Positions 1 to 11,230 of a DNA stretch of 64,000 nucleotides are shown here, in pieces (the first letter of the stretch is position 1; each line of letters starts with the position of its first letter). The stretch spans positions 7,551 through 71,550 of the forward strand of contig JBHHVD010000002.1 of assembly GCA_046754105.1 (NCBI GenBank), given 5' to 3'. Made by a program: the position numbers and the translations under genes. This stretch comes from Candidatus Krumholzibacteriia bacterium. GTDB lineage: Bacteria; Krumholzibacteriota; Krumholzibacteriia; WVZY01. Under the pieces are notes generated by a model. The model had not been told where the DNA came from, made no database searches, and was given only the letters and a program-made list of their open reading frames with translations.

Positions 1-1
1 T

Positions 2-517
2 TTGTACTATCGTTTGAAAGTCGTGCCGCTTCGCGTGCCGCCGCTGCGCGAGCGGAGCGCCGACCTGCTCAACTTCGTGAAGTATTTCATGAATGTTTTC
101 AACAAGAAATTCAATAAGGACTTCACCGAAATCGACGCCGCCGCGCAACAAGGCATGCTGTCCTACGATTGGCCCGGGAACATCCGCGAATTGAAAAACT
201 GTATCGAGCGCGTCATCCTGCTCGAAAAGGGCCCGGTACTGGAAGCCCGGCATCTTCCTTTCTCCGCCGGCGCGAGGGAAGAACACAGCCTTGGCCGCAA
301 GCTCGATCGCATCCTCGCACAGCCGATACCGGAGGACGGCGTCGATCTCGAAGAGCTGGTTGCGGAGCTGGAGAAGGAGCTGATCGTCAAGGCATCCGAG
401 CAGAGCGGCTGGAACCAGAGTAAGACGGCCCGTCTGCTCAACCTCAAGCGCGATAAGCTGCGCTACCGGATGAAGGGCTACGAGATGGGCGACAAGAAGG
501 AAGTGACGACCAATTGA
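2..517 (+). CDS. Sigma54-dependent (NtrC/Fis-family) transcriptional regulator, C-terminal part (5' truncated by window)
   Basis: YYRLKVVPLRVPPLRER and YDWPGNIRELKNCIER AAA+ motifs; Fis-type HTH WNQSKTARLLNLKRDKLRYRMK. Confidence 0.93.
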   Translation: MYYRLKVVPLRVPPLRERSADLLNFVKYFMNVFNKKFNKDFTEIDAAAQQGMLSYDWPGNIRELKNCIERVILLEKGPVLEARHLPFSAGAREEHSLGRKLDRILAQPIPEDGVDLEELVAELEKELIVKASEQSGWNQSKTARLLNLKRDKLRYRMKGYEMGDKKEVTTN

Positions 518-6699: not shown

Positions 6700-9195
6700 A
6701 TGGAACCGCTCCACGTCCGGAATTTCAGGATCCCAGTGTTCGTCTTCGTCGGCTGGATCCTGCTGCTCGAGTTCCCCGGCTCGAGCGACCTCGTCCGCTC
6801 TCCCTACTCGGGTCTGGAGACCGAGAACCTCGTCGTCCAGAACGTGCGGGCGGCGGGCCCCAACGCCGGAGCGGATATACGGCGCGGCGACGTTATTGTC
6901 GCCGTCGACGGGCGCCCCGTACGCAACTACAACCACCTCCGGCACCTGATCCGGCAAAATACCACGCACGCGCCGCAAGCCTACGCGTTCGATCGTGACG
7001 GAAAACCGGTGACCGTCCGCGTCAACTACGTTCAGATCCCGGCCTCCATCGTCTACCGACGGTTTGCGTCGCTGGTCGTCGGGTTCACGTTTCTCCTCAT
7101 GGGGCTCTTCGTCCTGCTGCGCCGCTTCGACTCGGTCGGTATTCTCTTTTCGCTCAACTGTGCCATCTTTGCGTACTTTCTCAGCGATCATCCCGTCGCG
7201 CCTTCGGCGTTCCTGCAGATCGCCACCGAGCTGTTTCAAGACGCCGTGATGCTGGCCTTTCCCGCAGTCTTTCTGCACTTTTTTCTCGTATTTCACGACC
7301 GGCCGCGGGGAATCAGCCGGCGAACCCGCGTGCGGCGCGCCGTCGCCCTCTACACCCTGCCCGTCGTGCTCTACGCCGTCAGCGCGTACTTTGCGATACG
7401 CTCGTTCCTCTTGATTTCGCCGCCGTCGGCGGCGGTCGACCTCATCCTCACCGCCTCGACGCTCTATATGTCGGCGTACCTGATCGCGTCGCTCTTTGTA
7501 TTCATCCGAAACTACCGTTCCTCTTCCCGGGCCCAGAAACAGAAGCTGCGGATCGCCATCGCCGGCACCACTATCGGCATCCTGCCGTTTCTGGCCACGA
7601 CCGTGTGGCGGCAAATTGCAACCGGCAGCAACACGCCCCTGGAGTTCATATCCGTACTCGCCCTGTCTTTCATTTCGATCTCGTTCGCTTACGCCATCCT
7701 CAAGCACGGGGCCATCGAGCTCAACATCGTGCTGCGCCGAAGCCTTGGTTACGCGTTCCTGGCGGGTACCATCGTAGTGACGTACTACGGCGTGGTCAAC
7801 CTGCTCGGTGACTTTTTGCAAAAGGAGTTCACACTGGGCTCGACCAGCTCGACGGTTTTCTCCATGATTACCATCCTCATCATTGCGCTGATCTTCGCCC
7901 CCGCGAGGAATATCATCCAGCGCGTGGTCGACAGGCTCTTCCGCAAGGATGACTACGACTACAAGCACGAGGTGCTCGAGTTCGGCCGCCGTCTGTCCAG
8001 AAAGTTGAAGAGAAAGGAGATCCGCGACTATTTCTGCGAGCGGGCCGGCACGTTGCTCGGCGTGACTTTTATCGCCTACTACACGCCGCGGACGGGTGGA
8101 GGCGAGTGGACGCTGGAACACACGTGCGGCGATGCGCCCGACCTGCCACCGCTGTTCCCTATCGACTCGCTTCTCGGCCGCTATTTCAGCCGCTACAAGA
8201 AACCCCTCATGGTGGAATACCTGGACTACTCCTGGGGCCGCCGCAACCTCGACGCCACCTCGACCGGCTTTCTCGACTCCAGCCGCGCCGCGGTGTGCGT
8301 TCCGGTGATGACCAGCGACAGCACGATCGCCGCGGTGGTTCTGGGGGCCAAGAGCTCGGGCCGGCTGTACACGCGGACCGATTCCCTCTTGCTGGAACGT
8401 TTTGCCGCGCAGCTCGCACTCGTGCTGGAAAACGCCGAACTGCACGAAGCAACGATCGAGCAGGAACGGTTGAAGAACGAGCTCATGCTCGCCCGAGAGA
8501 TCCAGTTGAGCCTTTTGCCCAAGGACTCGCCGCACCATCCGGCGATCGAGATGGAGGGCCGCATGGCGAGCTCGGACGAGGTCGGCGGCGACTACTTCGA
8601 CTATTTCGAGCTGGAAAGCGACCGGATCGGAGTTTGCATCGGCGACGTCAACGGGCACGGCGTGCCGGCCGCCATGCTGATGTCGTCGATTCAGGCCGTC
8701 TTCAAAAACCTCGCGCTCAAGGACAGAATGAACCCCTCAGACCTGGTCTCGGAGCTCAACCACTACCTGTGCGGGAGCGCCAAGAACGACCAGTTCGCCA
8801 CGTTCTTCTACGGAATCCTGGATCTGAGCGACTCGACCTTCACCTACGCCAACGCCGGCCACTGCCCCGCCCTTCTCCTCAAGCCCGCCTACGCCGACCG
8901 CCTAGGAGAGGGCGGTATGCCGCTCGGGGTCAACCGGGCACAGGTATATCGCGAGGGCACGGCCCGCGTCGAATCCGGGGATATGCTCTGCCTCTATACC
9001 GACGGTGTGACCGAGCAGACCGGTGAGAACGAACAGGAATTCGGAGAATCCGGTCTGATCGACTTTCTGAGGGCGAACAGAAACTTACCGCTTTCGCAAC
9101 TCCAGGACACGCTTTTTGCCCGGGTTCTTGACTTTGGCCAAGGCGTGCAGCACGACGACGTTACGTGCATAATCGCCCACCATAACGCCGTTTAG
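6700..9195 (+). CDS. PDZ / multi-TM / GAF / SpoIIE (PP2C) sensor phosphatase
   Basis: PDZ-like GADIRRGDVIVAVDG; many TM helices; GAF-like AVCVPV...VVLGAK; PP2C motifs VGGDYFD, IGDVNGHG, LYTDGVTE, HDDVT; GGAGG before ATG 6700. Confidence 0.88.
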   Translation: MEPLHVRNFRIPVFVFVGWILLLEFPGSSDLVRSPYSGLETENLVVQNVRAAGPNAGADIRRGDVIVAVDGRPVRNYNHLRHLIRQNTTHAPQAYAFDRDGKPVTVRVNYVQIPASIVYRRFASLVVGFTFLLMGLFVLLRRFDSVGILFSLNCAIFAYFLSDHPVAPSAFLQIATELFQDAVMLAFPAVFLHFFLVFHDRPRGISRRTRVRRAVALYTLPVVLYAVSAYFAIRSFLLISPPSAAVDLILTASTLYMSAYLIASLFVFIRNYRSSSRAQKQKLRIAIAGTTIGILPFLATTVWRQIATGSNTPLEFISVLALSFISISFAYAILKHGAIELNIVLRRSLGYAFLAGTIVVTYYGVVNLLGDFLQKEFTLGSTSSTVFSMITILIIALIFAPARNIIQRVVDRLFRKDDYDYKHEVLEFGRRLSRKLKRKEIRDYFCERAGTLLGVTFIAYYTPRTGGGEWTLEHTCGDAPDLPPLFPIDSLLGRYFSRYKKPLMVEYLDYSWGRRNLDATSTGFLDSSRAAVCVPVMTSDSTIAAVVLGAKSSGRLYTRTDSLLLERFAAQLALVLENAELHEATIEQERLKNELMLAREIQLSLLPKDSPHHPAIEMEGRMASSDEVGGDYFDYFELESDRIGVCIGDVNGHGVPAAMLMSSIQAVFKNLALKDRMNPSDLVSELNHYLCGSAKNDQFATFFYGILDLSDSTFTYANAGHCPALLLKPAYADRLGEGGMPLGVNRAQVYREGTARVESGDMLCLYTDGVTEQTGENEQEFGESGLIDFLRANRNLPLSQLQDTLFARVLDFGQGVQHDDVTCIIAHHNAV

Positions 9196-9212
9196 ACCCT
9201 CCTGGGGCAGCT

Positions 9213-9228
9213 CTGGAACGCTTCTTGC
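9213..9228 (+). promoter_or_regulatory. Putative sigma54 (-24/-12) promoter
   Basis: CTGGAACGCTTCTTGC matches YTGGCACG-N4-TTGC with one mismatch and exact GG..GC spacing. Confidence 0.6.
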
Positions 9229-9299
9229 GGCAGCCATAGATCGCAATCCACACAACACCATGAGCAGGTAAGTCGAAACCCTACCAAGGGGGGTACGTT

Positions 9300-9347
9300 A
9301 TGCGTAAGATTTGCCTTATCGATCTACTCTGGTGGTTAAGAAGGTGA
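9300..9347 (+). CDS. Candidate 15-aa peptide MRKICLIDLLWWLRR (TrpL-like leader or type I toxin-like)
   Basis: AAGGGGGG Shine-Dalgarno at 9286-9293, ATG 9300, TGA 9345-9347, tandem TGG codons; downstream hairpin. Confidence 0.5.
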   Translation: MRKICLIDLLWWLRR

Positions 9348-9353
9348 GCCATT

Positions 9354-9418
9354 CGGTGTTCCCGTTTGCTCAGCATGTGGTTGCGCGCAACCGGGAACAC
9401 CGCCCTTCTCTCTCTCCC
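9354..9418 (+). terminator. Strong hairpin followed by a pyrimidine tract (terminator/attenuator-like)
   Basis: CGGTGTTCCCGtTTGC (9354-9369) pairs with GCAAcCGGGAACACCG (9387-9402), 15/16 bp; followed by CCCTTCTCTCTCTCCC rather than a clean U-tract. Confidence 0.55.
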
Positions 9419-9612
9419 GATCCCCAGCGATCACGGGAACCTCCTTTAAGTTAGCCCCATATCCAATTACCACACAAAGCGTTACGACATCGACGTGGCC
9501 CCGGGAGCCGTACGGCGCGCCCCCACGGGGCGTCCAGAAACCACTTTAGGTGACCCGGTTAATACCCTGTCAACGGTCCATATGTCGTCGGGGCAATTTT
9601 TTCGTTTGCGGG

Positions 9613-9642
9613 TTGACAATTTTGAAGGGGTCCGTCTATACT
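9613..9642 (+). promoter_or_regulatory. Near-consensus sigma70 promoter
   Basis: TTGACA (9613-9618), 18-nt spacer, TATACT (9637-9642). Confidence 0.75.
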
Positions 9643-9648
9643 AAGAGC

Positions 9649-9783
9649 AACGAGAGTATCCCATTCCTTCGCGTGAGCCCTCTGCTCTCAAGCTAGATTG
9701 CTTAAGCGAAGCGGTTGCCGCATGGGCCTCTGACGGGCATTCGCAACACGGTTGGAAAGGGCTTCTGCTCTCGTTATTTTTTT
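9649..9783 (+). ncRNA. Candidate structured small RNA (~135 nt), family not recognised
   Basis: Begins ~7 nt after the -10 box; 5' AACGAGAGUA pairs with 3' UGCUCUCGUU, followed by a T7 run; internal stems GAGCCCU/AGGGCUU and GCGAA/UUCGC; no credible ORF. Confidence 0.6.
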
Positions 9784-9841
9784 GTGCCCGCGTTTCTGGT
9801 GGCACCCGCCACCGCGAGTTTTCCACAAATGAATAGTCTTG

Positions 9842-11230
9842 TTATCGACCCATCCGTGCGGCGAGTCTTTCGCTGTGGCGGTGGGCGTTGTCGATGCAAT
9901 CCACGACCGAAATCCCCGCCCGGTAATTTCCGGTGACAAAGAGGCCCGGCACTCGCGTCTCGAGGTCCTCGATGGCCTGGACGATGCCACGGTGACCGAG
10001 GTTGTACTGCGGGATCGCCCGCGGCCATCGCTTGACAACGGTGATATCGGGTTGTGTGTCGATACCCATCAGGTCTTGGAGTTCGTCGCGGACGAGTGTA
10101 ACGAGCTGGTCGTATGACAACGACGCGGCGTGGGGTGAACGGCCTCCACCCACGTACGTGGTGAGCGCGGCGCCCGCCCGCGGAGCCCTCCCGGCAAATA
10201 CCGCCGAGTTCCACAGCGTTCCGAGGATTCCACGGCGTTCTTTTGCCGGCACGAGAAAGCCGAACCCGTTGAGCCCGTTCGGCACCGGATCGCGGTGATA
10301 CCCAAAGAAGACGACCGTCACCGGGGGGTACGGAACGCGTTTGAGCACATCGTGGACCGGTGGGTCGAAATCGAGGTGGACGCCGTCGTAGGCGTACGCG
10401 GGGATGGTGAGAACGACGGCCCGGCACCGGAGCGTGCGTTCGCCTCCACGCGACTGCAGGTGGAGCGCGAAGTCTTCGCCTTCCTTGCGTACCGATCGCA
10501 CCCGCGTGCCGGTTGCGATCGCCTCGTGCAAACGCCCGGCCAGGGCGTCGATGAGGGTTTGCATGCCGCCCTTGAAAGAGAGCATTCCACCCCCGGCGGC
10601 CGGTCCCCCGTGACGCTGCCGCCGCTGCCGCCGACCCAACACCGCACCGCTGATGAGACTGCCGTAGCGCTGTTCCAGTTCGTAGAGTTTCGGAAAGGCC
10701 GCTCGCACGCTGAGGTCCTGGGCGACCCCCGCGTACACGCCCGCCACGAAGGGGTCGATGGCGTAGTCGAGCATCTCCTGCCCCAGGCGTCGTTTGACGA
10801 AGCCCGCAAGCGATTCATCGCGATCGGGGTCGCCGCGTTTGACAAAGGGCTCGAGCAGAACTCGAAGTTTGGAACGCAGCGAGAAGAGGTCCGTCCGTAG
10901 CGCCGAAACGGGGCCGAGTGGTAGTTGCCGGAGGCGACCGCCGCGAACGATGTAACGCCGCTTCGCCCCGGGCCTGGCGTATTCCAGCGATTGCGAGATC
11001 CCGAGCTCGCCGAGCAGCTCATCCACCGCAGCCGTGGTCTTCAACGCGCTGGTGGGCCCGTGCTCGAAAAGAAATTCGTCGACGCGCTCCGAGTGGATGA
11101 CGCCGCCGGGCTTGTCGTTCGCCTCGACCACCGCGGCGTCCACACCCCGTTGTCTCAGAAAGTGTGCGAGGCACAGACCCGTGATCCCGGCCCCGACGAT
11201 GCCCACCTCGATACGGCCTGGAGCGTTCAT
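9842..11230 (-). CDS. hemY: Protoporphyrinogen/coproporphyrinogen oxidase, HemY-type FAD-dependent
   Basis: IVGAGITGL dinucleotide motif, FEHGP, GFGFLVP, WPRAIPQY; hem operon context. Confidence 0.93.
   Translation of the reverse strand: MNAPGRIEVGIVGAGITGLCLAHFLRQRGVDAAVVEANDKPGGVIHSERVDEFLFEHGPTSALKTTAAVDELLGELGISQSLEYARPGAKRRYIVRGGRLRQLPLGPVSALRTDLFSLRSKLRVLLEPFVKRGDPDRDESLAGFVKRRLGQEMLDYAIDPFVAGVYAGVAQDLSVRAAFPKLYELEQRYGSLISGAVLGRRQRRQRHGGPAAGGGMLSFKGGMQTLIDALAGRLHEAIATGTRVRSVRKEGEDFALHLQSRGGERTLRCRAVVLTIPAYAYDGVHLDFDPPVHDVLKRVPYPPVTVVFFGYHRDPVPNGLNGFGFLVPAKERRGILGTLWNSAVFAGRAPRAGAALTTYVGGGRSPHAASLSYDQLVTLVRDELQDLMGIDTQPDITVVKRWPRAIPQYNLGHRGIVQAIEDLETRVPGLFVTGNYRAGISVVDCIDNAHRHSERLAARMGR

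Follow-up and report, generated by a model that had tools for sequence, protein, structure and literature searches.

A short tandem-tryptophan peptide gene linked to a PDZ-7TM-GAF-PP2C receptor-phosphatase in Krumholzibacteriota and Eisenbacteria, with copies in phages and Patescibacteria

Organization of the locus

The window, by which we mean the whole 64,000-nucleotide stretch analysed here, encodes on its forward strand an 831-aa membrane receptor-phosphatase (6700..9195), in which a TM anchor is followed by a PDZ domain, a 7TM bundle resembling HisKA_7TM, further helices, a GAF domain and a SpoIIE/PP2C domain; Pfam recognizes the PDZ, GAF and SpoIIE modules. Placed 105 nt beyond the stop codon of this gene, and on the same strand, is a compact mini-gene. 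It comprises a sigma-54-type -24/-12 promoter motif (9213..9229; GG at 9215-16, GC at 9227-28), from which transcription is predicted to start near 9240, a Shine-Dalgarno-type sequence AAGGGGGG (9286..9293) whose G-run is kept in the order-level alignment, an ORF for a 15-aa peptide MRKICLIDLLWWLRR (9300..9347) and, beginning 6 nt past its stop codon, a hairpin with a pyrimidine tract (9354..9418; arms 9354-9369 and 9387-9402 with 15/16 pairs, pyrimidines at 9403-9418). The original prediction had placed all these elements at the same positions. It had also correctly noted that neither a trp gene nor any other protein gene follows on this strand: the next protein genes past the mini-gene are those for haem synthesis, encoded on the opposite strand.

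The promoter motif has the GG-N10-GC form with a steady spacing, and the genome encodes rpoN together with 15 strong sigma-54 activators. Taken by itself the motif is weak, as 48 of the 52,417 GG-N10-GC sites in the same genome score equally well; across 70 loci it recurs 60-115 nt upstream of the start codon in 63, as against a mean of 3.2 and a maximum of 10 in shuffles. The hairpin at 9354-9418 was not returned as a canonical terminator by the terminator scan; sought as a repeat, it is single-copy in the genome. Distant families have a hairpin at the equivalent place, mostly with a U-tract after it, and on this ground we read it as the likely end of the transcript. On the 5' side, the MFE fold predicts a leader stem on the same strand (9264..9317; 9266-9274 pairing with 9308-9316) that encloses the ribosome-binding site. 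Within the order this stem covaries with codons 3-7, and in 30 of 30 order-level loci, which are kin and not independent, the leader pairs better with its own ORF than with the ORF of another family.

Roughly 300 nt downstream of the peptide gene lies a candidate structured non-coding RNA of about 140 nt (9647..9790, forward strand; hereafter RNA B), preceded by a sigma-70-type promoter on the same strand (9613..9642; 11/12 in a promoter scan) that is conserved in relatives. In five families RNA B is found once, a short way downstream of the peptide gene; it has an invariant core and displays compensatory change in nine of its 25 pairs. A covariance model recovered one copy in 61 of 150 genomes of the phylum, present in most members of some families (f1 7/8, f2 15/17, f5 26/33, f6 10/10, f9 1/1) and scarce or not found in others (f3 1/60, at another place in that genome; f7 0/9, f8 0/6, f4 0/5). 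When run on 100 loci, the same model gave 16 matches, all at host loci and none in phages or Patescibacteria; RNA B is not needed wherever the peptide occurs. Searches with Rfam at 8000-11000 and at six related loci returned nothing above the gathering score except tRNAs. An identity with 6S RNA (RF00013) was rejected, as the 6S match of this genome is on contig C77 and none is at RNA B.

The spacer between the peptide gene and RNA B (window 9430-9600), like the matching spacers of several relatives (L002-L009), contains short AT-rich palindromic motifs, possibly activator or IHF sites. In one metatranscriptome, from marine sediment (share 0.05), the peptide gene of a relative is covered by a 196-nt contig and RNA B by one of 169 nt (9665-9785), with none over the spacer; since such contigs carry neither strand nor start and may stem from DNA, they are a weak hint of transcription.

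The original prediction had considered a type I toxin among the options for this layout. The Fst/Ldr and Ibs toxins are likewise short hydrophobic peptides with Trp and a basic C-terminus, translated from a structured leader. A sigma-54-controlled membrane peptide of toxin-like action, slowing growth or depolarising the cell and with its translation restrained by RNA structure, would be compatible with the short, hydrophobic product and its basic C-terminus, with the conserved leader stem and a Shine-Dalgarno sequence that is predicted to be mostly paired (mean 0.77), and with the conserved RNA next door. However, RNA B does not behave as an antitoxin: it is not complementary to the peptide mRNA (the duplex z has a mean of -0.11 and falls below -2 in one of 35, and perfect matches extend to 6-8 nt at most). 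A search for a minus-strand sigma-70 promoter across 8800-10200 found none, though a promoter of another type may still give rise to an overlapping antisense RNA. A pairing of the 3' tail with the Shine-Dalgarno sequence, suggested by RNAalifold, was likewise rejected, the single-sequence ensembles giving a mean of 0.09 with values above 0.5 in just 3/30. Further, the gene is single-copy and vertically inherited, keeps an exact Asp/Trp-Trp motif across two phyla, and longer relatives of its product matched no family in Pfam, NCBIfam, PHROGs or PADLOC, in searches that are insensitive to queries this short; these features set it apart from the known toxins and render a toxin improbable.

Conservation of the peptide gene and its linkage to the phosphatase

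A BLASTN search with the intergenic region gave matches, in two blocks, in 11 of 12 genomes of the family and 20 of 23 of the order. The first block includes the ORF in all 32 order-level loci, always of 15 codons and accompanied by the Shine-Dalgarno sequence and hairpin; 31 of these were counted by script, and the last (L025), an ortholog reading WF instead of WW, was read by eye. Loci from more distant families were chosen via the upstream phosphatase ortholog and not the peptide, so as to avoid circularity. The ORF is present in 40 of 40 such loci, drawn from the upper part of about 140 phosphatase matches: in 39 it is on the same strand, 68-410 nt downstream of the phosphatase gene, and in one (L078) it is inverted.

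The substitution pattern is that of a translated sequence. Over 70 loci, the eight core codons vary by 1% at codon position 2 and by 36% at position 3, and pairs within the order differ by 1293 synonymous as against 406 non-synonymous codon changes. Since a D..WW pattern served to pick the 70 rows, part of the invariance of D and WW stems from how the rows were chosen; the D, L/I, L/F, L and R of the core are conserved, with synonymous change. All three stop codons occur among these loci. The mini-gene is a real protein-coding gene, and the complete sigma-54-type unit that had been predicted is supported. Its products form a family with a variable hydrophobic N-terminal part, followed by [IVL]D[LI][LF]WW[LI][RK] and 0-2 mostly basic residues. 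They are 14-23 aa long as a rule, with one natural form of 40 aa, and their alignment has no conserved Cys. A single hydrophobic membrane segment suits the 18-23-aa forms. The 15-aa form of the order is short, with a GRAVY of 0.39 vs the family mean of 1.03; such forms have neither the length nor the low charge needed to span the membrane.

Eight relatives of 21-22 aa compared with Pfam and NCBIfam, four with PHROGs and four with PADLOC matched no family, at lengths for which these searches are insensitive and with the 15-aa form below their size limit; one Pfam match of a relative, to the VEGFR-2 TM segment (E 0.034), is below cut-off. The natural 40-aa variant used as a query against the ESM Atlas gave a best value of 0.80, which is at chance level. 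Searches of the literature on small proteins of Krumholzibacteria, on episymbionts in connection with Eisenbacteria and Patescibacteria, on WWLR and on HisKA_7TM found no description of the peptide, although large small-protein catalogues may list the sequence in their supplements. The family is undescribed so far in the literature searched. The gene is below the size of routine gene calling, and so the whole family is likely unannotated.

A degenerate motif pattern is found in 177 of 208 genomes of Krumholzibacteriota, nearly always once, as against about 25 genomes (counted by eye) for the reversed pattern, and in 63 of 151 genomes of the Eisenbacteria-group phylum, with two for the control. 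Wider scans of GTDB and of metagenomes took in 53/64 and 35/64 parts, respectively, and required a GGAGG site, which makes the resulting range a lower bound. With this requirement the GTDB-wide scan yielded at least 120 loci, 105 of these being short in-frame ORFs; among the 15 of 120 matches dropped as chance are a likely frameshift and a long read-through that lie beside, or resemble, true members. Among the matches listed, 80 loci have full flanks, and 68 of them include the phosphatase; the other 12 are eight chance matches, three Patescibacteria and one genome with the phosphatase on another contig. Among the metagenomic matches listed, the phosphatase is present at 63 of 120 loci, 19 lack it despite at least 600 nt of upstream sequence, and 38 are too short to tell. 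Chance matches (L234; those in G050 and G106; the second match in G094) were left out. The NCBI labels Fibrobacteraceae, Gammaproteobacteria and Acidiferrales on some loci were not used, as their receptors group with members of the phylum or their genomes are of 0.9-1.0 Mb. Several loci labelled as Eisenbacteria are devoid of the sigma-54 motif. In one host genome (L288; G109:C99) there is also a second copy, MTPEILFGLMVVDILWWLRKINH, that is divergent, is not located by the phosphatase gene and may be in a prophage.

Orthologs of the phosphatase itself are detected at E<=1e-60 in 172 of 201 genomes of the phylum, and its named close homologues are from Candidatus Krumholzibacteria and Latescibacterota records. 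The mini-gene, which the original prediction had described as an orphan, is instead linked with the phosphatase gene in both phyla. Inversion of the peptide unit does not break this adjacency, nor does a phosphatase gene that points away: in one genus (g20; L078, L148, L150, L157, L168) the peptide gene and RNA B have been inverted as a block and remain directly beside the phosphatase gene. In family f4 the peptide motif is found in 0/7 genomes, and in the five tested the best receptor match is a PDZ-less paralog. As adjacent genes vanish together in assembly gaps, we count f4 as the sole lineage-level joint loss, amounting to one event. A PDZ-less 7TM-GAF-PP2C paralog is also encoded in the genome under study (G000:C3:18990-21272, minus strand), with no peptide gene downstream, and would serve as a natural negative control in binding tests. 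The tail types of the peptide are lineage-specific and follow the receptor tree, with 24 changes vs a shuffle mean of 51 (quick tree, 73 of 77 rows), a pattern which shows shared descent only and not co-evolution.

Linkage and shared descent are no proof of a receptor target, and with its own promoter the peptide could be a co-inherited output of the same pathway. A genuine regulatory peptide of the membrane, of which parasites have copies as described below, might act on another conserved host protein, e.g. a sigma-54 sensor kinase, a membrane protease or an export complex, and sit beside the phosphatase through one inherited regulon. The separate promoter and the inversion in g20 are in line with this, as is a pair of a GAF-PAS histidine kinase and a sigma-54 response regulator (G000:C2:4617-8067, with the 3' end falling in window 1-517) that lies 6-12 kb upstream of the phosphatase gene and has sugar-nucleotide genes and a diguanylate cyclase as neighbours. 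Homologues of this regulator are found in 5 of 11 relatives tested, and it is a candidate, though only that, for the activator of the peptide promoter. The receiver genes that adjoin the peptide in Patescibacteria and the 7TM kinases in those genomes likewise point to such a target. Yet the adjacency to the phosphatase persists where the gene order around it does not: the kinase/regulator pair is not seen in 6 of 11 regions. In addition, the peptide and phosphatase are absent together in f4; we therefore regard a target other than the phosphatase as unlikely, if a serious contender. The option favoured here is the link to the upstream PDZ-PP2C sensor, also raised in the original prediction and in keeping with the position of the peptide beside the phosphatase at all 40 distant loci.

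Copies in phages and Patescibacteria

The IMG/VR database has 27 matches to the peptide in 25 contigs, of which 23 are ORFs led by a Shine-Dalgarno sequence and stopping within two codons of the motif. Controls with two scrambled patterns gave 0/26 and 1/3, where the single match comes from a locus that belongs to the genuine set, and a second search pattern added three more viral loci. The phosphatase was sought at 26 viral loci and is absent from all 26. Genes for terminase, portal, head, tail, lysin or integrase proteins flank 11 of the 26, and most of the others have phage replication genes; the flank of L251 has no PHROG match, and that of L254 has metabolic PHROG matches only. The sigma-54 motif is present at just four of the 26 phage copies, as would be expected if most are driven by the parasite's own programme.

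A true copy is also encoded in 8 of 401 genomes of one class of Patescibacteria (nine matches, one of them chance), and among the matches listed the GTDB-wide scan found further peptide-bearing Patescibacteria with genomes of 0.9-1.1 Mb. Like those of phages, these copies comprise the peptide without the phosphatase. The peptide gene often follows a receiver-domain gene, with a match to Response_reg in six of eight tested. It is found in islands, on contigs of 84-375 kb, that also encode secreted-type proteins, many of the ORFs having a GC content of 0.5-0.57 vs about 0.3 around them. At L434, L435, L436 and L437, for instance, GC-rich islands located near a fur/ZIP-transporter locus on low-GC chromosomes combine receiver genes and the peptide with ORFs of secreted or lipoprotein type; these are possibly host-directed effector islands. 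The same organisms encode HisKA_7TM-GAF histidine kinases of their own, and hence their peptide copies could also act at home.

Multiple variants may be arrayed in tandem: two phages and two Patescibacteria have two each (L258, L261, L195, L214), and a metagenome contig (L333:184-516) has three different peptide variants in a row, each with its own Shine-Dalgarno sequence. Parasite copies resemble particular host variants, as seen with MRNDLVDLLWWLRKR as compared to the order's MRNELVDLLWWLRKR, and with MKFFVLFVDIFWWLRD, which resembles MHWFILFVDIFWWLRD of family f6.

These copies also bear on the first option suggested by the tandem Trp codons, namely a TrpL- or TnaC-like leader that senses tryptophan via its own translation, in cis or in trans. 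TrpL leaders share with the present unit a short ORF, here of 15 aa, tandem Trp codons and a hairpin soon after the stop. However, no trp gene is located downstream, and the downstream element is under its own promoter. The genome has a separate candidate for the true trp leader on contig C28 (G000:C28:10226-10400, forward strand), with YYWWW and a U-tailed terminator, before a trp operon whose trpA is recognized by Pfam and whose first gene we take to be trpE. The lengths of 14-23 aa with a hydrophobic N-terminal part, the WF ortholog, the constraint on non-Trp residues and the copies in phages all run against such a leader. So do those in Patescibacteria, where trpA was sought in five peptide-bearing genomes and found in none. 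Tryptophan sensing hence appears very improbable.

Receptor architecture and a proposed mechanism

AlphaFold models of the receptor agree with the domain order given above and place the PDZ domain on the outer side, with a well-defined 7TM bundle (pLDDT 92) between the TM anchor and the further helices, GAF and PP2C domains. Conserved charged residues (R142, D144 and R284) are at the cytoplasmic ends of the modelled bundle. The Pfam HisKA_7TM model matches 27 of 77 ortholog segments, the segment from the window itself not being among them. In fold searches the full-length receptor retrieved PP2C domains only. The 7TM bundle on its own has peptide-binding GPCRs as its nearest solved folds, with a best Z of 12.2 (rmsd 4.7, 215 aligned), a score below the level that the tool sets for helical bundles, and Foldseek with the 7TM model returned no match at E<=0.001. 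HisKA_7TM is listed as a widespread sensor domain, with no ligand named for it in the portion of the source consulted (PMC5847659). Residues 127-587 of the receptor also have a weak match to PrsK (TIGR02916; E 5e-4), far below the cut-off.

The PrsK/PrsR PEP-CTERM system is one in which sigma-54 promoters occur along with hydrophobic-plus-basic peptide tails; it differs from the present system in that the receptor here has a PP2C output, and the peptide is free-standing and without a PEP motif. A closer functional likeness is offered by MgrB, SafA and UgtS, small membrane proteins that, according to the part of the source available, bind and regulate the sensor kinase PhoQ (PMC12648545). As with these, we have a small peptide of predicted membrane location, with its own promoter, whose proposed roles are to target a membrane sensor and to complete a feedback loop. 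In contrast to them, the proposed target is a PDZ-7TM-GAF PP2C protein, the promoter has a sigma-54 motif, and there are copies in phages and Patescibacteria; moreover, their lengths are 34-65 aa vs the 14-23 aa seen here, with no family match. Membership in the MgrB family itself was rejected, as the same partly available source assigns MgrB two periplasmic cysteines (PMC12648545), as opposed to no conserved Cys and no family match in the present case. If our reading holds, the peptide works like the MgrB-type regulators and recalls the agr genes of a phage while being a member of neither group.

The latter precedent is presented by phage phiCDHM1, which, as far as the accessible part of the report goes, carries agr genes for the peptide, its processing enzyme and the kinase (PMC3901668). 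The two cases have in common a host peptide-signalling gene on a phage. The parasites described here differ in having the peptide alone, on many unrelated contigs and in Patescibacteria too, with no processing gene linked, as opposed to the whole agr set of that phage. This precedent could be taken to suggest that the peptide, as a precursor or in its mature form, represents a diffusible autoinducer that is exported, sensed outside by the PDZ-7TM receptor in a quorum-sensing-like manner and broadcast by parasites. The proximity of its gene to one for a 7TM receptor that has its PDZ domain on the outside, the similarity of the 7TM model to peptide-binding GPCRs and the tandem variant arrays in phages would agree with this. 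However, the conserved neighbourhood lacks a processing or export gene, a hydrophobic peptide with a basic C-terminus suits a membrane anchor, and the GPCR similarity is at the sub-threshold Z and without the Foldseek support noted above. A diffusible signal thus appears quite unlikely to us.

The reading that we prefer, and hold to be somewhat better than an even bet, takes the peptide to act in the membrane on the adjacent PDZ-7TM-GAF-PP2C receptor-phosphatase, as its ligand or modulator, comparable to MgrB and mimicked by phages and Patescibacteria. It sets out from the gene with its coding signal, its fixed phosphatase linkage, their joint absence in one family and the phosphatase-less copies of the parasites. 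Made from its own predicted sigma-54 promoter, the peptide would likely insert in the inner membrane, the 18-22-aa forms adopting an N-out/C-in topology with the Asp, the Trp pair and the basic tail at the cytoplasmic face, and the 15-aa forms lying shallower. There, it would likely bind the 7TM domain of the adjacent receptor and thereby set the phosphatase output. STAS proteins are the usual substrates of SpoIIE-type phosphatases, and the genome has eight STAS matches; the phosphatase may accordingly feed a partner-switching pathway. Induction of the peptide by a sigma-54 activator would close the loop. By analogy with the effect of MgrB on PhoQ, we modestly favour damping as the effect on the receptor, since parasites would gain from silencing an envelope or stress response of the host. 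Phages and Patescibacteria would then carry lineage-matched copies that mimic the host peptide, and the lineage with the resembling variant would be predicted to be the one that such a carrier infects or attaches to.

More broadly, and as a tentative proposal that we consider rather less probable than not, the system could constitute a bacterial pair of a peptide ligand and a 7TM receptor, the latter GPCR-like in fold and with a PP2C as output. This pair would have been present in the ancestor of Krumholzibacteriota and Eisenbacteria, and repeatedly and independently hijacked by phages and Patescibacteria episymbionts with lineage-matched mimics, some of them as multi-variant arrays. The repeated capture by both kinds of parasites implies that the pathway limits them or must be steered by them. 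Both host phyla are hardly studied, and the finding offers a candidate ligand for a sensor domain of the HisKA_7TM type. For Patescibacteria, the lineage-matched peptides would predict hosts and offer a candidate effector. If such a hijacked ligand-receptor pair is indeed at work, the peptide would be the first defined host-signalling effector of Patescibacteria within the literature searched, and its variants would serve as a host barcode for uncultured phages and Patescibacteria.
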